A stretch of DNA of 64,000 nt. Source: Escherichia phage KarlGJung. The position numbers were made by a program, and so were the translations under genes. Below, piece by piece: positions 2,995-57,981 of the stretch; position 1 is the stretch's first letter, and every line of letters starts with the position of its first letter. Under the pieces are notes generated by a model, which worked only from the letters and a program-made list of their open reading frames with translations, did not search any database and was not told where the DNA came from. The DNA lies in the sequence record MZ501089; one strand, given 5' to 3'.

Positions 2995-3061
2995 TTTATT
3001 CTCCAAGATGTTTAATTGCGGTACAGGTATATAATATCATATCCTGTACCAAAGTAAACAA

Positions 3062-3394
3062 TTATTTTACTACTTTCCAATGCTGCATGTCAAGTTTACC
3101 AACTTTTTTCATCTTCTCAATTAAGCGTTCTGCACGTTGGCGAGCTGTAACATAATGCCATTCGCCTAATTCATTTTGTTCAATTTTTCCAACGATTACT
3201 GTATTCAATTCATAAATCCAACCAGTAAAGAAATTATGAACTTGAATTGTAAAGGTGAAATCTGTTCCCATACCTTCTGTTGTTTCTACTTCAATAATAT
3301 CACCTTCAACTGCCATTAAGAACCACATAGTTTCATTATATTTACCATTGAAGCATTTAGTTTTAACTGCAGCGTTCAGATTAATCGTTTTCAT
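3062..3394 (-). CDS. hypothetical protein (110 aa)
   Basis: ORF track; ATG start with AAGGAG Shine-Dalgarno; early-type promoter directly upstream. Confidence 0.5.
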   Translation of the reverse strand: MKTINLNAAVKTKCFNGKYNETMWFLMAVEGDIIEVETTEGMGTDFTFTIQVHNFFTGWIYELNTVIVGKIEQNELGEWHYVTARQRAERLIEKMKKVGKLDMQHWKVVK

Positions 3395-9812: not shown

Positions 9813-11400
<1,588 letters not shown>

Positions 11401-11427: not shown

Positions 11428-12606
11428 TTAAAAGTATTTTTTAAAACTCATCATAACTTTATCATCAACATCATTATCAATCTGTGCAACAAGATAAGAT
11501 GACAGTTCTACTTCTTGTGGCGCTGATTGAACATTATCAGAATTAAGATATTCACGAATCCAAGGATATGGATGTTTAACCGGAGCATCGGTAATTGGGC
11601 ATGGAAGACCGCACTGTTTCATACGAGATACAGTTAAGTAATCAATAAAGCTCCACATGCTATTTGTATTTAATCCAGGAACATCGCCATCTTTAAATAA
11701 ATGAACTGCCCAATCTTTTTCTTGACGGTTAACTTCCATGAAAATATCAACTGCTTCTTGTTCACACTCTTGAGCAATTTTAACCCATTCATCACCATCC
11801 GTGCCAAGTTGAAGTTGACGAATAATATATTGTGTACCTTTAAGATGAAGCTGCTCATCACGTGCAATGAACTTCATAATCTTGGCATTACCTTCCATGA
11901 TTTCCATGTTCTTATGGAAGTTAAAGGTACATGCGAAAGATACATAAAAACGAATAGCTTCTAATGCATTAATAACGTGCAAACAGAGGTAAAGAGATTT
12001 CATTAGCTCACGCTTCCAATATGTCTCATGCTCAATAGCATCTTCAATAACGTCTTCGTCTGCATTAATTTCTTTTTGGTATTCGATATCAGCTTTAGCG
12101 TTTTCCCAATAACGAGTTTTAATCAGAACATCATCATAATAACGTCCAATGGATTCAGCACGTTTCATAATAGCTTCATCTAATACAATTTCATCAAATA
12201 CCTTCGATGGATCAGTATAAAGATTTCGCATGATATGTGTATATGAACGGCTGTGAATAGTTTCACTAAAAGTCCATGTAGCAACCCATGTATCAAGGCT
12301 TGGGTCTGAAATTAATGACATAAGTACAGCAGACGGTGCACGACCCTGAATGCTATCCAAAAGTGATTGATACTTCAGGTTGTTAGTAAAAATATTTTGC
12401 TGATACTGAGGAAGCTTATTAAACTGTGCAGCATCCATCATTAAGTTTACTTCTTCAGGACGCCAAAAAAATGATAAAGATTTCTCAATAAGTTCTTCAA
12501 ATACTCTATGTCGTTGAATATCATATCGAGCTAAACCCAATCCAGAACCAAAAAACATCGGCTCAGTCAAAATATTAACAGGGGATGTATTAAAAACTGT
12601 ACTCAT
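11428..12606 (-). CDS. nrdB: ribonucleotide reductase beta subunit (class Ia)
   Basis: 392-aa continuous ORF, ferritin-like RNR small subunit; T4-like N-terminus MSTVFNT...; no intron interruption. Confidence 0.92.
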   Translation of the reverse strand: MSTVFNTSPVNILTEPMFFGSGLGLARYDIQRHRVFEELIEKSLSFFWRPEEVNLMMDAAQFNKLPQYQQNIFTNNLKYQSLLDSIQGRAPSAVLMSLISDPSLDTWVATWTFSETIHSRSYTHIMRNLYTDPSKVFDEIVLDEAIMKRAESIGRYYDDVLIKTRYWENAKADIEYQKEINADEDVIEDAIEHETYWKRELMKSLYLCLHVINALEAIRFYVSFACTFNFHKNMEIMEGNAKIMKFIARDEQLHLKGTQYIIRQLQLGTDGDEWVKIAQECEQEAVDIFMEVNRQEKDWAVHLFKDGDVPGLNTNSMWSFIDYLTVSRMKQCGLPCPITDAPVKHPYPWIREYLNSDNVQSAPQEVELSSYLVAQIDNDVDDKVMMSFKKYF

Positions 12607-13244
12607 TTAGAATCCTTAAATTTACATTTATCATAATGCCATCTTAAAGCATTGCCTTTATTAACTTTCTTGCCACAATGTGGACAAGGCGGATACTCTG
12701 TACCTTGCTTAGTTCTCAAAGAAATCAAATCACGGGTTTCTTTAGTATGAGGAACATCTCTTGTCGGAGAGATTGTACCATACATCGGATTAAGCACGCC
12801 GACTTTAGCAGCAGCTATATTCTTTTTAGCTTCTTCGGTTTTAGGTTTTCTCATGCGAGCTAAATGCTCTTTGGTAAATTTCCTTCCTTTAAGGGCTCTA
12901 CTTATCTTTTCTCTGGTTTCCATAGAAACTTCACGTCCTGTAGCAGCTTCAGATAAACGTCGTCTACCTAATTCGTACAGTTGAGAAGAAATTTTATATG
13001 AGCGATTTTTACCAGTCAAGCACATTAAACCAAAAGCTTTCTTTAATCCTGGGGTGTCATATATTTTACATAAAAGCCAATGAGCTATAAAATGCTCTCT
13101 ACCTGTTAATTCAACTAAATTTTCTTTATCATCAGAACCTCCCATACATCTAGGGATTATATGATGAGTCTCTTTATATCCTAATAAAGGTTCCCGAGCC
13201 TGAGCTCGGGAAATTAGGTCGTTATAGATTTTTTGATAATTCAT
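12603..13244 (-). CDS. mobE: free-standing HNH homing endonuclease (mobE-like)
   Basis: HNH motif HHIIPRCMGGSDDKENLVELTGREHFIAH; repeated NUMOD-like DNA-binding modules (TREKISRALKGRK, TKEHLARMRKPKT, TEEAKKNIAAAKVG); C-terminal Cys/His cluster; lies between nrdA and nrdB like T4 mobE. Confidence 0.7.
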   Translation of the reverse strand: MNYQKIYNDLISRAQAREPLLGYKETHHIIPRCMGGSDDKENLVELTGREHFIAHWLLCKIYDTPGLKKAFGLMCLTGKNRSYKISSQLYELGRRRLSEAATGREVSMETREKISRALKGRKFTKEHLARMRKPKTEEAKKNIAAAKVGVLNPMYGTISPTRDVPHTKETRDLISLRTKQGTEYPPCPHCGKKVNKGNALRWHYDKCKFKDSK

Positions 13245-16378: not shown

Positions 16379-17394
16379 CATTATGTTCAGATAAGGTCGT
16401 TAATCTTACCCCGGAATTATATCCAGCTGCATGTCACCATGCAGATCAGACTATATCTCCAACTTGTTAAAGCAAGTTGTCTATCGTTTCGAGTCACTTG
16501 ACCCTACTCCCCAAAGGGATAGTCGTTAGGCATTTATGTAGAACCAATTCCATTTATCAGATTTTACACGATAAGTAACTAATCCAGACGAAATTTTAAA
16601 ATGTCTAGCTGCATCTGCTGCACAATCAAAAATAACCCCATCACATGAAATCTTTTTAATATTACTAGGCTTTTTACCTTTCATCTTTTCTGATATTTTA
16701 GATTTAGTTATGTCTGAATGCTTATGATTAAAGAATGAATTATTTTCACCTGAACGATTTCTGCATTTACTACAAGTATAAGCAGAAGTTTGTATGCGAA
16801 CACCGCACTTACAAAACTTATGGGTTTCTGGATTCCAACGCCCGTTTTTACTTCCGGGTTTACTGTAAAGAGCTTTCCGACCATCAGGTCCAAGTTTAAG
16901 CATCTTAGCTTTAACAGTTTCAGAACGTTTCTTAATAATTTCTTCTTTTAATGGATGCGTAGAACATGTATCACCAAACGTTGCATCAGCAATATTGTAT
17001 CCATTAATTTTAGAATTAAGCTCTTTAATCCAAAAATTTTCTCGTTCAATAATCAAATCTTTCTCATATGGAATTTCTTCCAAAATAGAACATTCAAACA
17101 CATTACCATGTTTGTTAAAAGACCTCTGAAGCTTTATAGAAGAATGGCATCCTTTTTCTAAATCTTTAAAATGCCTCTTCCATCTCTTTTCAAAATCTTT
17201 AGCACTTCCTACATATACTTTATTGTTTAAAGTATTTTTAATCTGATAAATTCCGCTTTTCATAAATACCTCTTTAAATATAGAAGTATTTATTAAAGGG
17301 CAGTCCTACAATTTAGCACGGGATTGTCTACTAGAGAGGTTCCCCGTTTAGATAGATTACAAGTATAAGTCACCTTATACTCAGGCCTCAATTA
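16379..17394 (-). mobile_element. group I self-splicing intron in td, carrying the I-TevI gene (1016 nt)
   Basis: Exon 1 ends ...FLG (last nt U), then in-frame TAA and the sequence UAAUUGAGGCCUGAGUAUAAGGUGACUUAUACUUGUAAUCUAUCUAAACGGGG...; intron ends ...AUAAUG (terminal G) before CUUCCAUUUAAU. Length and ends match the T4 td intron as I recall it. Confidence 0.9.
16526..17263 (-). CDS. I-TevI: GIY-YIG homing endonuclease I-TevI (intron-encoded)
   Basis: 245 aa; N-terminal GIY-YIG domain (MKSGIYQIKNTLNNKVYVGSAKDFEKRWKRH); zinc finger CKCGVRIQTSAYTCSKC; C-terminal DNA-binding domain; lies inside the td intron. Confidence 0.95.
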   Translation of the reverse strand: MKSGIYQIKNTLNNKVYVGSAKDFEKRWKRHFKDLEKGCHSSIKLQRSFNKHGNVFECSILEEIPYEKDLIIERENFWIKELNSKINGYNIADATFGDTCSTHPLKEEIIKKRSETVKAKMLKLGPDGRKALYSKPGSKNGRWNPETHKFCKCGVRIQTSAYTCSKCRNRSGENNSFFNHKHSDITKSKISEKMKGKKPSNIKKISCDGVIFDCAADAARHFKISSGLVTYRVKSDKWNWFYINA

Positions 17395-50064: not shown

Positions 50065-50568
50065 TTAGTCTAAGGTAATAAAGCCTTTTAGTTCGGCATG
50101 AGATTTGCGGAACATTACTTGATGCCCGCCAACGATAACTTGGTCATCTGGTACTTCGTATACAGCGAGATAAAATCCTTTAGAAGATAATTCTTCCCGC
50201 TCTTCTCGTGTGAACCATCTCATCATATCATATTCGCTAGCGAAAGCAAAATGATAAAGAGCTATAAACCATCCGGGAATATAATGATCTACGCCTACAT
50301 ATTCTTCTTTCTCAAAGTTAGTATTAATTGCTATATTAGCATTTTTAACTAATAATTTGTCTTCGCGCGGAAGAGGAATTCTTTTATTATCATTACTATG
50401 ATGCATAAAATTAGGTCTGTCATAACCTACACGTAATAACCACTCTTCACTCCATGAATCTATTATACTTCTATATGGCGTTATTTGAACACAAAGATCT
50501 CGACGTATTGTTATAGCATCTTCATAATTAAGAATACTAAATGATGATTCAACACGATAAATTTTCAT
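50065..50568 (-). CDS. hypothetical protein (about 167 aa)
   Basis: ORF track frame trimmed to ATG (MKIYRVESS...) with GAGGA Shine-Dalgarno, downstream of an early promoter. Confidence 0.45.
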   Translation of the reverse strand: MKIYRVESSFSILNYEDAITIRRDLCVQITPYRSIIDSWSEEWLLRVGYDRPNFMHHSNDNKRIPLPREDKLLVKNANIAINTNFEKEEYVGVDHYIPGWFIALYHFAFASEYDMMRWFTREEREELSSKGFYLAVYEVPDDQVIVGGHQVMFRKSHAELKGFITLD

Positions 50569-52048: not shown

Positions 52049-53368
52049 TCACACATAAAATACGTCATAACGACCACGGGTAACACCAACATAAAGAAGT
52101 TGTTGAGCTAATTCAGCATCTGCATAATGAATGCAAGGCGTATAAATGAAAGCACGGTCTACAGACATACCCTGAGCTTTATGGAATGTTGATGCAGGAA
52201 GTGCTTTCACTTTACTAAACTGTGATTTAGCATCCCAAAAATCACTCCATGGAGCTTTTCCGCCTTTGTTCCAATTTTTATAAGTTTCTGCCGTTTTACC
52301 TAAAAATAGGTTAAACTTATACAGTTCTTCATCAGATGAAATTATTTTAATCTTTTCACGATAATATTCATCATCGCCATAAGTTTCTACTGTTAAATCC
52401 CAATGACGAATTAGATATTCTCCAGGAACACCACGAGCTTTAACAAACGTCGATGTATACTCTGCTTCTATAATACGAACTAATTGTCCGTTATTAAAAA
52501 TAATTTCTGACACAGGCTTTCCATCAATTTTATATGTTTTAATTAATGGTTCCTGCATTACAATAATTTCACCGACAATAAAATCTTTATCAGTTTCAAA
52601 AATCTTTTTACGAATAATGCTATTTAACTTGTCAACAGATTTATTCGTAAATGCCATTACGCGATTTTCAAACAAATCATCTAGTGATTTGACGATTGAA
52701 AAATAATTTACCATAAAATCGCGTAAAGCGGTATCACCAGTAAATCCACGTACTCCATGACCGTCAACAACTTTATCATAAATCCACTTACCGTTGCGAA
52801 CATCAGTAGCTACATCAATAATAGGAGCATTACTGCGTTTAACTTCAGTAAGTTCACACTGATAAAAATCTTTGTGTGTAAAGAATGGACTGATATAAGC
52901 AGTATTTTCTCCTGGATCAACAGGTCTAATTTGCTTATTATCACCTATTCCAATTATAGTACACCAAGGTGGAATAGTTGAAAGCAGAATTTTAAATAGC
53001 TTTCTATCATACATTGACACTTCGTCGCAGATTAATACCCTGCATTTAGCTAAATCTGGTACTTCCTTCTGTTCAAAAAGAACGTTTTCTTCATACGTAA
53101 CTGGGTTAATTTTAAGAATACTATGAATAGTACTTGCTTCTTTCCCTGATAGTTTTGAAAGAATCTTTTTAGCTGCATGAGTAGGAGCTGCTAAAATAAT
53201 ACCAGTTTCACCCGTAGATATTAAAGCTTCAATGATGAACTTAGTAAGAGTAGTCTTACCGGTACCGGCAGGTCCATTAATAGTTACATGGTGTTTCTTT
53301 TCTTTAATAGCCTTCATAACAGTGTTAAAGGCATTTTTCTGGCCTTCGGTCAAATCATCAAATGTCAT
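52049..53368 (-). CDS. dda: Dda DNA helicase (SF1)
   Basis: 439 aa; Walker A GPAGTGKTT; T4 Dda-like N-terminus MTFDDLTEGQKNAFN. Confidence 0.92.
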   Translation of the reverse strand: MTFDDLTEGQKNAFNTVMKAIKEKKHHVTINGPAGTGKTTLTKFIIEALISTGETGIILAAPTHAAKKILSKLSGKEASTIHSILKINPVTYEENVLFEQKEVPDLAKCRVLICDEVSMYDRKLFKILLSTIPPWCTIIGIGDNKQIRPVDPGENTAYISPFFTHKDFYQCELTEVKRSNAPIIDVATDVRNGKWIYDKVVDGHGVRGFTGDTALRDFMVNYFSIVKSLDDLFENRVMAFTNKSVDKLNSIIRKKIFETDKDFIVGEIIVMQEPLIKTYKIDGKPVSEIIFNNGQLVRIIEAEYTSTFVKARGVPGEYLIRHWDLTVETYGDDEYYREKIKIISSDEELYKFNLFLGKTAETYKNWNKGGKAPWSDFWDAKSQFSKVKALPASTFHKAQGMSVDRAFIYTPCIHYADAELAQQLLYVGVTRGRYDVFYV

Positions 53369-53676
53369 CGTAAATTCCCTGCAATTGGTATACTAACAAT
53401 ACGCCCAGTATCTAAAATTCGCTGATATAATCTTTGCGTGTCTACGTCAGGCTTAACATGTTTAACTTCTATTTTATTAAACCAAAATTTACGTGGAGTC
53501 TCAACTAATCTTGGAATTCCCTTACCTAAAGCTAGTCGATACTGCTCTTTAAGAGTAGTAAATACTTTATCAGCAATATTCCATTCAAAAAATACAGCAG
53601 GACGATGTTCATCAAGCGGAACTGGCGCCGTAAATCCGTCTTTGTCTCGGTAAACTATCGCGTATACATAAACCAT
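53365..53676 (-). CDS. hypothetical protein (103 aa)
   Basis: ORF track; ATG start; ATGA overlap with dda. Confidence 0.45.
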   Translation of the reverse strand: MVYVYAIVYRDKDGFTAPVPLDEHRPAVFFEWNIADKVFTTLKEQYRLALGKGIPRLVETPRKFWFNKIEVKHVKPDVDTQRLYQRILDTGRIVSIPIAGNLR

Positions 53677-53677
53677 A

Positions 53678-54424
53678 TTATCCTCGGATAAGTTTAAAAA
53701 TTGAACAATTTAGCGGGTATCCTCTTTTCAGTTTAAGTTTATCAATAAAAGACAAGTTTTGATACCGCTCTACACCTTGAATAATTTTATCACACATATC
53801 ATATTGCATTTCTGCTTCTGACAACTTTTTCACAATTTTCCAATCCGAGCCTTTAAGAAGAACGTTCAATTTAACAACTTCAGCACCTTCTGCTATGCGA
53901 GAACCATCAATACGAGCTTTGAGTGCTATAATCCTTAGCTTAATGTCAGATGTCTGTTTTGATTTAGAAAGCTGAGAAATGTGTTCAATTCGGTTTTCAC
54001 GTTTTTTCTGTATAGCTTTAATTTGATTATAAGTCTTTTTGATTTTAGCCCATTTCTTTTCATCTAAATTTAGTTTATGAACTTTTTTCGCAGATGAATG
54101 ACCAATTCGCAAAGCAAATAAATCACGCTTTTCAATCAACTCTTCTAAAGTATAATCAGAACGAAATGTATTATACTTTTTCTTTACTGCAATAACATTC
54201 CCTTTAATGTATCCAACGTTATTATCAAAACGTTCTAATGATAATTTCTCTCCTTCAATACGATTATCAAAAGGTTCTCCCGAGTAAGCACAAACTTTTT
54301 GATCTAAAATGTTCTTAATGTAATTGAAGTCTAAGTTAAAATCTTTAGAACGTCTTTTTGCAGATGCCTGAGTATGCTCTAGACGACGTTTAATTTTACG
54401 AATTTGGTTATTAGACAGCTTCAT
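53678..54424 (-). CDS. basic, lysine-rich protein (248 aa), Srd-like by position and size
   Basis: ORF track; ATG start; early promoter upstream; lies between dda and modA. Confidence 0.5.
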   Translation of the reverse strand: MKLSNNQIRKIKRRLEHTQASAKRRSKDFNLDFNYIKNILDQKVCAYSGEPFDNRIEGEKLSLERFDNNVGYIKGNVIAVKKKYNTFRSDYTLEELIEKRDLFALRIGHSSAKKVHKLNLDEKKWAKIKKTYNQIKAIQKKRENRIEHISQLSKSKQTSDIKLRIIALKARIDGSRIAEGAEVVKLNVLLKGSDWKIVKKLSEAEMQYDMCDKIIQGVERYQNLSFIDKLKLKRGYPLNCSIFKLIRG

Positions 54425-54457
54425 ATTTTTCTCACATCTTACGGACGGTTAACTACT

Positions 54458-54491
54458 TATACTATAACATTTTTACCTTAACTTGTAAACA
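54458..54491 (-). promoter_or_regulatory. early promoter upstream of the srd-like gene
   Basis: Minus-sense (T)GTTTAC, 18 nt, TATAGT. Confidence 0.55.
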
Positions 54492-54502
54492 ACTTTATGA
54501 AA

Positions 54503-54529
54503 AATGCTTTAAAACTTTCATGGTATAAT
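54503..54529 (+). promoter_or_regulatory. candidate MotA-type middle promoter on the plus strand (antisense to modA)
   Basis: Plus-strand AAATGCTTTA (MotA-box-like), 12-nt spacer, TATAAT; would transcribe into the modA/modB antisense strand. Confidence 0.3.
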
Positions 54530-54546
54530 GAATCTAAGTCCTTCCA

Positions 54547-55149
54547 TTATAGATTAAATCCTTCAAAATCAAGAGTATAGATAGTGTATGTTGAATACTT
54601 TTTATACTCGTATCTATCCGCAATTCTAAATACACTTCCAGCTGGTATCATTACTTCTTGTTCATCTGAAACTAATTCCATATTACGATAGCGATGGCTA
54701 TCCGGAAACTTAAAACTCGGACTATATTCTTTACAACGTAGAGCTTTTATAGCATACTCCTGGAAATTGAATACCATAGGAGCTTTGAATTCAAAAATAA
54801 CTTGTGTGTTATACTCTAAACCGGAAGCAAAATGTAGAGCTATATTTTTATCATATGAAGCTGATACGACTTTATCAAATGTAATAATATCAATTCCTTG
54901 ATTTAATACTTGCTTAGTCTCAGCTGGAACACCTCTCCAAAGAGGTTTATCGTTTGGTTCCAAACGAGATTTGATTATTTCATTTAACCAAGTATGGTCA
55001 TCTGGTTTATTAGTAATACAATGAATTAAAAGTTCAATTTCAGATAAATTAAACCCTTCAGAAAGTAATTCTTCACGAATAGAAGCACGCACCGATGCAT
55101 CCATTGATTTGATTTTAAAATCTTTTAATTGCATTGCTGAATATTTCAT
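54547..55149 (-). CDS. modA: ADP-ribosyltransferase ModA
   Basis: 200 aa; ART-like elements (LWRGVP arginine, ...EQEVMIPAG glutamate); adjacent paralog ModB. Confidence 0.8.
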   Translation of the reverse strand: MKYSAMQLKDFKIKSMDASVRASIREELLSEGFNLSEIELLIHCITNKPDDHTWLNEIIKSRLEPNDKPLWRGVPAETKQVLNQGIDIITFDKVVSASYDKNIALHFASGLEYNTQVIFEFKAPMVFNFQEYAIKALRCKEYSPSFKFPDSHRYRNMELVSDEQEVMIPAGSVFRIADRYEYKKYSTYTIYTLDFEGFNL

Positions 55150-55769
55150 TCAACTACCTCAATATCATACACTTTAAATGTTCCAAATGAATCGTGTAAT
55201 TTTTCTTTTGAAATAGAAGTTATTCTATACTTTCCAATTGGAATCATCCATTCTTGTTCACGCACAATCATCATTAAGTTATCAGTACGCTCTGAATCTA
55301 ATCCATCAGTATCTTCATATGTATACTTAAATTCAGTATTAGGAGAAGAAAGTATAATATCGCTGATATGGTCAGAATAATTAAAAGCTTTATCAGTTTT
55401 TAAGCGAAATATTATTTCAGTGAAATACTCAACATAAGAAAAACCACATGCTGTGTGCAAACTAGTAGTAAATGAATCTACTCTGTTCGTTGAAAACACT
55501 TCTCCGACTTGTAAATCTTTAATGAGTTCTTTTGTCGATTTTGATATACCACGATATAGCTGATAAGGCGATTTAGTTAAATGCTTTTTAACGATTTTAT
55601 TCAACTGCCGATGAAGAGCTTCATTCTTTTTGGCTTCCATACACTGCCAAAGAACTGACTGTTCAAAGTCAGTAAATTTTTCACAGACCTTTTTGTACAT
55701 ATCATATTGAAAATCAACACTTTCAGCTTTTATAGATAACTGTTCAACATCTGCGAGATTAATAATCAT
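55146..55769 (-). CDS. modB: ADP-ribosyltransferase ModB
   Basis: 207 aa from the ATG with GGAGG Shine-Dalgarno (MIINLADVEQ...); ART-like elements (LYRGIS, ...EQEWMIPIG). Confidence 0.8.
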   Translation of the reverse strand: MIINLADVEQLSIKAESVDFQYDMYKKVCEKFTDFEQSVLWQCMEAKKNEALHRQLNKIVKKHLTKSPYQLYRGISKSTKELIKDLQVGEVFSTNRVDSFTTSLHTACGFSYVEYFTEIIFRLKTDKAFNYSDHISDIILSSPNTEFKYTYEDTDGLDSERTDNLMMIVREQEWMIPIGKYRITSISKEKLHDSFGTFKVYDIEVVE

Positions 55770-55791
55770 GATAGCCTCCATATACTTCAGA

Positions 55792-55826
55792 AGCTATCAT
55801 ATCATTGTTAGGAAGGAAAGTAAACA
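55792..55826 (-). promoter_or_regulatory. early promoter upstream of modB
   Basis: Minus-sense (T)GTTTAC, 17 nt, weak -10 (ATATGAT). Confidence 0.4.
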
Positions 55827-55836
55827 ACTTTTTGAA

Positions 55837-56019
55837 TTATTTTGCCCAGGGAGCCCAAGGCGGAGGGTCAAGATGGTATGAAGCTAGTTCTTCTAGAAGA
55901 GCATCTGGGGCTTCAATTCCATAATTCTGTAATACTATACGGTACTCTTTCTTATAATCACTAGAATCATTCTGGATATTCGTAGAATGATTATCTTCTA
56001 ACATCTCAAATAAATCCAT
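55837..56019 (-). CDS. hypothetical protein (60 aa)
   Basis: ORF track. Confidence 0.4.
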   Translation of the reverse strand: MDLFEMLEDNHSTNIQNDSSDYKKEYRIVLQNYGIEAPDALLEELASYHLDPPPWAPWAK

Positions 56020-56027
56020 ATTAATTC

Positions 56028-56510
56028 CTAGCGATAAAAACCAAAATAACGATTAGCTTCAATAATCTTTCTTTCTTCTTCAGATATTCTCCAGCGTAGT
56101 CCAACATCAAAATGAGCCCAGACCATCTTAACAAATGCATTTATATCTTTAATATCTTCAATAATGAATGTTTTACTTTTAGAAGGTTGACCTGCTAAAT
56201 TAAGTGCTAATTTAACTTTATCGTCTTCAAACAGGGCAAAAAGACCATATTCATGAGCTCTTTTATAGCCTTTAATAGTTAAAGCTTCAGAAGAAGAAAA
56301 CGGTGAATCAGTATTCTGTAAAATATCTTCAGTATGCTTTATAATTAGAATAACATTTTCTGGATATTTTCTTTCTTTTATATCTTTAATTAAAAGATCC
56401 GGATTTTCTGCTAAAGGAATAATTAATGAGCATTTTTTATCAAGTGCATTTACTGATTTACCTTCTTTAGACATAAATTCTATTGAATAATGTTTTGCTA
56501 CTTCAATCAT
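56028..56510 (-). CDS. hypothetical protein (160 aa)
   Basis: ORF track; ATG start overlapping the upstream small ORF stop. Confidence 0.45.
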
Positions 56511-57906: not shown

Positions 57907-57940
57907 TCTATTATACCATACTCATTTTGGAAAGTAAACC
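57907..57940 (-). promoter_or_regulatory. early promoter
   Basis: Minus-sense GGTTTAC, 18 nt, TATAAT; immediately downstream of the soc terminator. Confidence 0.6.
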
Positions 57941-57947
57941 ATTTAAA

Positions 57948-57973
57948 TGAAAAAAGGACTCCCGAAGGAGTCC
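57948..57973 (-). terminator. Rho-independent terminator after soc
   Basis: Minus-sense GGACUCC-UUCG-GGAGUCC followed by UUUUUUCAUUU. Confidence 0.65.
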
Positions 57974-57981
57974 TTGAATTA

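Follow-up and report, generated by a model that had tools for sequence, protein, structure and literature searches.

A predicted MotA-type middle promoter directed against modA and modB in T4-type phages

The modA-srd spacer and the site within it

The window analysed here is a whole stretch of 64,000 nucleotides from Escherichia phage KarlGJung (MZ501089), a genome with a GC content of 35%. The region of interest carries the genes dda, dda.1, srd, modA and modB on the minus strand, is of Tequatrovirus type, and shares 99.4% identity with several T4-like phages over 501 nt. Between modA and srd lies a spacer of 122 nt, which houses the plus-strand site described below. Position 54400 of the window corresponds to position 11761 of T4 (NC_000866) in the same orientation, and the srd-modA spacers of the two phages differ by a single base outside the motif, so that the site can also be described in T4 coordinates: on the plus strand of T4, TATAAT occupies 11885–11890 and the predicted start falls at about 11897. 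In window coordinates, the features of the locus are as follows.

53678–54424, minus strand: srd, an anti-sigma/RNase E-activating early gene, the downstream neighbour
54489–54461, minus strand: srd early promoter (sigma-70, TG-extended), TTTACA-17-TATAGT, back-to-back with the plus-strand promoter
54502–54511, plus strand: MotA box AAATGCTTTA, with the core TGCTTTA at 54505–54511 and its centre at about -30
54512–54520, plus strand: spacer between the box and the extended -10, which together with TGG (54521–54523) gives 12 nt from box to hexamer
54521–54529, plus strand: extended -10 element TGGTATAAT (TGn plus TATAAT), made up of TGG at 54521–54523 and TATAAT at 54524–54529
54521–54546, plus strand: 26-nt core TGGTATAATGAATCTAAGTCCTTCCA, of which 25 bases are those of the uvsY/oriF middle promoter
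54536, plus strand: predicted transcription start (A), 7 nt past the -10, by homology with the mapped PuvsY start
54536–54967, plus strand: predicted antisense RNA, drawn to the weak terminator-like hairpins at 54931–54946 and 54950–54967, the first on this strand
54547–55149, minus strand: modA, RNA polymerase alpha ADP-ribosyltransferase of 200 aa (stop codon 54547–54549), the first gene on the antisense path
55146–55781, minus strand: modB, ADP-ribosyltransferase, next after modA on the antisense path
55824–55796, minus strand: early-type promoter of modB, from a promoter scan

The T4 RefSeq and GenBank records contain no annotation within the modA-srd spacer. The sole promoter annotation that we found there is that of the srd early promoter, which is entered as 'promoter' on the minus strand in phage Lutter, and none of the phage records listed has any annotation at the plus-strand site. 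On the minus strand, no intrinsic terminator was found from modA to srd (54425–54546). The modB-modA transcript is handled as a separate unit in the NAD-cap preprint, despite the lack of an intrinsic terminator before srd. The 'modA-modB' control primers of that preprint (RT and forward primers, T4 13092–13149, plus strand; reverse primer, about 12008–11982, minus strand) target the sense mRNA and are uninformative on antisense RNA.

A sequence-only reading of the window had described a MotA box followed on the plus strand by exactly 12 nt and then TATAAT. Our check of the sequence agreed with this description, including its end and its spacing; only the beginning had been placed one base late, at 54503 and not at 54502. 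AAATGCTTTA agrees with the consensus (a/t)(a/t)(a/t)TGCTT(t/c)A at all 10 positions, and the 12 nt that separate the box from the -10 lie within the 11–13 bp of T4 middle promoters, as had been claimed. The site also has TGn, an element that is carried by about half of T4 middle promoters and is not obligatory. There is no -35 element: the hexamer AAATGC, located 17 nt ahead of the -10, agrees with TTGACA at none of its 6 positions, and a -35/-10 scan of the plus strand did not include the site at 54502–54529 among its predictions. With a MotA box at -30, 11–13 nt to the -10, an optional TGn and no -35, the site therefore resembles the MotA/AsiA middle promoters of T4. All the defining sequence features are present in near-ideal form, which supports the assignment to the MotA type.

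What sets the site apart is its orientation. The 58 mapped middle promoters run counter-clockwise ahead of prereplicative genes, whereas this site faces clockwise and has no gene downstream on its own strand. From the gene positions, a plus-strand transcript would enter modA, 10 nt after the predicted start at 54536, and then modB, so that the antisense geometry proposed earlier holds.

Rank in the genome and conservation

A search for the strict pattern TGCTTTA-N12-TATAAT gave a single match in the window and no match in 100 dinucleotide shuffles. For scoring, we used a two-block weight matrix with a spacer of 11–13, trained on the 49 cleanly aligning members of the 58 mapped T4 middle promoters (Table 1 of the Hinton 2010 review, PMC2988021). 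The modA-side site scored 24.8, which made it the top site of the window on either strand and the second of the whole T4 genome when both strands were considered. Its fit to the consensus exceeds that of every mapped member, the best of the 58 being PuvsY at 23.9. The top T4 score, 25.2, was found on the plus strand at about 76000; both of the best genome-wide sites are thus plus-strand sites, while all 58 mapped promoters read properly on the minus (counter-clockwise) strand only. The third-best plus-strand site of T4 scored only 14.8, which means that this strand has two outliers and no tail. When PuvsY and PnrdC.7 were left out of the training, the modA-side site scored 24.0 and was still second in the T4 genome. 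For the null model, a 169-kb strand was simulated 120 times by an order-3 Markov process. The maximum was 21.8, scores of at least 20 arose 0.033 times per strand and none reached 24, giving an expectation for a score of at least 24 of less than one per 120 genome-strands.

The second-best plus-strand score of the window, 17.1, belongs to a site at about 50256–50300 with a MotA-like box at 50260. It has no T4 counterpart at 17.1 and lies in the chance range, the null model yielding about 1.5 sites of at least 16 per 169-kb strand.

The modA-side site is missing from the 58 mapped middle promoters, though consensus-guided searches yielded many of those (PMC2988021), and the mapped promoters closest to it are Pdda.1 at 11138 and P56/69 at 16813 (Table 1, PMC2988021). 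The literature searched, in which coverage was partial and an earlier prediction is possible, makes no mention of the site or of a transcript from it, and the T4 RNA-seq papers searched do not discuss antisense reads at this locus. dRNA-seq of T4, sampled at 0, 4, 10 and 20 min with or without terminator exonuclease, gave 150 start sites, 22 of them antisense, according to the available part of the NAD-cap preprint (GSE255091; bioRxiv 10.1101/2024.04.04.588121); in that part of the text, neither an antisense start at 11.9 kb nor an antisense start tied to a MotA box appears. Stranded RNA-seq of a T4 motA-amber has also been described (PMC6024815). Among the known T4 antisense RNAs, both sense and antisense transcription has been reported for gene 32 (Belin et al., 1987, as cited in PMC2988021), and the RNA predicted from the modA-side site would fit this class.

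To describe conservation within Tequatrovirus, we aligned the spacers of 12 of the most divergent versions. Inside the promoter, the only changes were TGCTTTA to TGCTTCA, which is compatible with the consensus, and substitutions at two spacer bases; TGCTT, the extended -10 and the spacing of 12 between box and -10 were invariant. The srd-proximal half of the spacer contained several indels and substitutions, and the part from the early -35 to the modA stop was nearly unchanged. Indels of one base occurred directly upstream of the box, between both promoters, and never within either. On the larger scale of 506 Tequatrovirus records, a 49-nt element was 100% identical in 321 and had at most 2 differences in 500, and the surrounding 241 nt showed 90–95% identity in about half of the records. 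The element is hence better conserved than its flanks across about 500 genomes.

Outside Tequatrovirus, ModA has less than 60% identity to the ModA of the window, and mostly 25–35% among the records listed. The modA-srd spacers of the other genera are unalignable, yet a MotA-box/TATAAT promoter in the same orientation was found in all seven genera examined. An IMG/VR search for ModA returned six near-identical loci with little diversity, and GenBank phage records were therefore used. T4 and RB69 were compared genome-wide, and the other five phages over a locus of about 5.5 kb each, with the following matrix scores.

T4 and the window (Tequatrovirus): 24.8, second in the T4 genome on either strand
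RB69 (Mosigvirus): 25.4, best of the whole genome on either strand
CGG4-1 (Gelderlandvirus): 21.6, next antisense-strand match in the locus 12.2
Bp7 (Dhakavirus): 17.5, next antisense-strand match in the locus 7.0
IME523 (Kanagawavirus): 17.5, next antisense-strand match in the locus 9.7
PKO111 (Jiaodavirus): 15.5, next antisense-strand match in the locus 6.6
PS49 (Karamvirus): 15.4, next antisense-strand match in the locus 8.6

Common to the seven genera are TGCTTT, a perfect TATAAT with a G after it and, between the two elements, a spacer of 12–13 nt whose sequence is unrelated. That the box, the spacer length and TATAATG are kept while the spacer sequence drifts is a signature of selection on a promoter. 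T4, RB69 and CGG4-1 carry TGn, which Bp7, IME523, PKO111 and PS49 lack; the sites of the latter four genera should therefore depend strictly on an activator. MotA homologues were found in 1141 records, from phages of the same host groups, and RB69 encodes MotA. Judged from these data, the site appears to be a new, unmapped MotA-dependent middle promoter that would be unusual in its orientation, its consensus rank and its conservation.

The surroundings of the site vary among the genera. A back-to-back arrangement, with the srd early promoter on the far side of the MotA box, is seen in T4, RB69, Bp7 and IME523, and a face-to-face one, with this early promoter on the modA side and nearly coincident starts, in CGG4-1 and PS49; in PKO111, the MotA box abuts the ribosome-binding site of srd. 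The distance from the box to srd ranges from about 12 to about 95 nt across the genera. The predicted antisense start lies 6–38 nt from the modA stop codon in seven of seven. Since this distance is kept and the srd promoter flips, it is modA, and not the srd promoter, that is the constant. The positional pattern argues for a modA-directed function and against a mere UP element of the srd promoter. In CGG4-1 (3133–3221) and PS49 (3040–3126, both in locus coordinates), the srd early promoter GTTTAC...TAGAAT opposes the reverse MotA-type promoter. As the two starts nearly coincide, polymerase at one should exclude polymerase at the other, and an early-to-middle toggle is possible there.

Kinship with the uvsY promoter and a sister site

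The site and PuvsY have in common TGGTATAATGAATCTAAGTCC(T/A)TCCA, that is, 25 of 26 bases from TGn to about +11. Within it, TGGTATAATGAATCT-A-AGTCC is identical in both, and the mapped PuvsY start, T4 115371 (Hinton 2010 Table 1, PMC2988021), is the corresponding A. Because the shared stretch spans the mapped start of PuvsY, the start predicted here is the A at 54536, and a 5' end previously placed at 54536–54540 could be narrowed to this base. The likeness covers TGn, the -10, the start and the first approximately 11 transcribed bases, and the MotA box is properly placed. In contrast, the spacing is 12 here and 13 in PuvsY, the box is TGCTTTA here and TGCTTCA in PuvsY, and the orientation is opposite. 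Furthermore, PuvsY drives the uvsY mRNA and forms the R-loop of oriF, whereas no origin has been mapped at 11.9 kb.

The second plus-strand outlier of T4 lies at 75964–76010, in the spacer between gene 3 and gene 2, and reads ATAATGCTTTAT-N-TGGTATAATGGGTCTAAGTCCCTTCC with a score of 25.2. It carries the same core as the modA-side site, TGGTATAATGGGTCTAAGTCCCTTCC, and is likewise absent from the table of 58 mapped middle promoters. This site overlaps the translation-start region of the late gene 3 and points antisense through genes 2 and 4. Its syntenic counterpart in RB69 is found at 79261–79310 on the plus strand, with a score of 16.1. A weaker relative is PnrdC.7. When IMG/VR was scanned with a pattern for the shared core, 14 stretches were obtained, from the same few T4-like contigs.

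More broadly, we observed that a sub-family of middle promoters shares the -10 plus the start region, roughly TATAATGrnTCTrAGTyCnTCC (-12 to about +11), at the following positions.

T4 (including PuvsY/oriF and PnrdC.7): 115361–115386, minus strand; 53315–53340, minus strand; 11882–11907, plus strand; 75985–76010, plus strand
RB69 (starts): about 117566, minus strand; 53052, minus strand; 112033, minus strand; 12122, plus strand; 79296, plus strand

The conserved first transcribed bases of this sub-family might serve as a signal at the RNA 5' end or as a binding site, or might contribute to promoter escape. Given how closely the site matches the oriF promoter, one may ask why exactly this start region has been reused.

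Proposed antisense transcription and rival explanations

The anatomy, the statistics, the conservation and the kinship with PuvsY were established directly. From them we infer firing in vivo, a need for MotA and an action of the RNA, and we consider it likely that the site is a functional MotA-type, MotA/AsiA-dependent promoter that faces clockwise, against all early and middle gene flow. In the mechanism that we propose, RNA polymerase with AsiA-remodelled sigma-70 would be recruited by MotA on AAATGCTTTA from about 1–2 min after infection onward, would open the DNA at TGGTATAAT and would start at about 54536. The RNA would enter the 3' end of modA directly and continue toward modB. Head-on collisions would then be expected with polymerases coming from upstream early promoters (e.g. 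that at 55824–55796), and the antisense RNA may anneal to the 3' portion of the modB-modA mRNA, leading to double-strand-specific decay. The purpose would be to limit synthesis of the toxic early ADP-ribosyltransferases to the first minutes and to mark the end of the modB-modA unit.

ModA is highly toxic and acts early (PMC2988021), which would make its switch-off at the onset of middle transcription a sensible purpose. On the other hand, modA and modB are dispensable and early shut-off is unaltered by deletion of modA (PMC2988021), so that the benefit of regulating them is not obvious. We therefore regard antisense control of modA/modB as a plausible purpose, with about even chances if the promoter is real. 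Two further factors could shape its activity: in the first phase of infection, strong early transcription across modB-modA could keep the site occluded, and the TGn-extended -10 in T4 could permit some MotA-independent activity.

For the predicted RNA, no clear discrete terminator was found, only the weak hairpins at 54931–54967, and its first 200 nt are rich in C and poor in G (C/G 1.6). Taken together, these properties make Rho-dependent termination plausible and indeed probable, which would give an RNA without a fixed length. We also considered two other products of the plus strand. A structured small RNA was rejected, as the folding of the first 165 nt is no better than that of shuffled sequences (z = 0.38); Rfam 15 had nothing relevant in 53500–56500, its sole match lying elsewhere at a chance-level E of 0.56. 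A small protein was rejected as well. The first ATG, at 54588, opens an ORF of 13 codons that lacks a Shine-Dalgarno sequence. The window and T4 show three differences, two of which alter the peptide, which is evidence against a small protein. The remaining plus-strand ORFs are TTG-started and 40–44 aa long, and no credible ORF lies downstream.

In phage lambda, the promoter Po lies just downstream of cII and gives rise to OOP, a short terminated RNA of 77 nt that is made by unmodified host polymerase and causes RNase III-dependent cleavage of the cII mRNA, acting at its 3' end. By analogy, this is the closest functional counterpart to the architecture proposed here, in which a promoter set directly behind the stop codon of an early regulator whose dose is critical would fire back into the 3' end of that gene. 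Unlike OOP, the RNA considered here would be gated by the phage proteins MotA and AsiA and is without a clear terminator, and its effect on the target is a proposal.

Several other explanations have to be weighed against a promoter that serves to control modA. The sequence-only reading had allowed for a chance match in A/T-rich DNA, and to this may be added an inactive relic left by a short duplication of the uvsY promoter; an A/T-rich genome (35% GC) and the absence of the site from the mapped promoters would fit with chance. However, the null model expects less than one such score in 120 genome-strands, the site is conserved above its flanks in about 500 genomes, and it recurs in seven genera with unalignable spacers. 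A chance match is thereby excluded, and the chance/relic reading as a whole, to which we give hardly any weight, is effectively refuted by the null model and by the conservation within Tequatrovirus and across genera. It might also be argued that the sequence serves the minus strand only, as an UP element or upstream region of srd or as a 3'-end signal of the modB-modA mRNA, with the promoter being silent or acting as a roadblock or decoy. Relative to the srd early promoter, the MotA box of T4 does occupy about -48 to -57, a region in which the early promoters of this phage have UP-element-like A/T tracts (PMC2988021), and since there is no intrinsic terminator from modA to srd, something else may set the 3' end of the mRNA. 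Yet an UP element needs neither an invariant TGCTT nor a perfect TATAAT 12–13 nt away, and box, spacing and TATAATG are still kept in CGG4-1 and PS49, where the srd promoter lies on the other side, as well as in PKO111, where the box is at the srd ribosome-binding site. At uvsY, moreover, the same core works as a promoter, with the reverse orientation towards its neighbours. We hold a role confined to the minus strand to be quite improbable; both this explanation and that by chance or relic are weakened by the cross-genus data.

A third possibility starts from the kinship with PuvsY itself: the site would be an origin promoter of the oriF type, at which a persistent R-loop, formed a short way downstream by the MotA-dependent transcript, is cut by RNase H and primes a clockwise leading strand, the antisense transcription of modA being incidental. 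It draws on the 25 of 26 bases common to the site and the oriF promoter, the first approximately 11 transcribed bases included, and on the finding that oriF and oriG each consist of a middle promoter and a downstream unwinding element (PMC3016281). In T4, the three copies of the core are located at 11.9, 76.0 and 115.4 kb, the annotated oriA, oriE and oriF at 16.8, 79.4 and 115.3 kb, and both plus-strand copies aim at a nearby origin. The 100 nt downstream of the site are A/T-rich (28% GC, 11th percentile of T4 windows), but this property does not discriminate, as oriF (30%) and oriG (34%) are themselves unremarkable. Moreover, the plus-strand copies are 3–5 kb away from the origins, with oriA (T4 16763) at 4.9 kb from the modA-side site; the review ascribes oriA to the P56/69 transcript and states that oriE has no middle promoter in its vicinity (PMC3016281). 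PnrdC.7 has the same downstream motif and is no origin, and the position of the site is tied to the modA stop codon from genus to genus, a constraint for which an origin gives no cause. We thus consider an origin promoter unlikely at this position.

Returning to antisense control, every mapped T4 middle promoter follows the direction of the early and middle genes, and, unexpectedly, the two best consensus sites of T4 oppose it. These two reverse sites, together with the conservation of the one behind modA in seven genera, where its position follows the modA stop codon, suggest that MotA/AsiA may also switch genes off by antisense transcription. We speculate, with some reservation, that T4-type phages might possess a small conserved class of 'reverse' middle promoters that fire head-on as programmed antisense/collision switches. 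If this were true, the T4 class would consist of two sites, that behind modA and that in the gene 3/gene 2 spacer, which would be at once the best MotA sites of the genome and paralogues of the oriF promoter. The face-to-face arrangement in CGG4-1 and PS49 would then be a direct early-to-middle promoter toggle, and the modA/modB switch would be a concrete piece of the unexplained shut-off of early genes. As an alternative, the start region common to these promoters might denote places where R-loops form and prime clockwise replication forks close to oriA and oriE. T4 is the reference system for sigma appropriation, and the mechanism that ends early expression was described as unknown in the 2010 review (PMC2988021); the modA site would offer a specific place for such a mechanism.

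Elsewhere on the minus strand of the window, a strong stem-loop terminator, AAGGACTCCTTCGGGAGTCCTT plus a T-run, was found at 57954–57975, directly followed by a TG-extended early promoter, TTTACT-17-TATAAT, at 57910–57938. Combinations of a terminator and an early promoter are of the kind described as mobile regulatory cassettes in T4-type phages.
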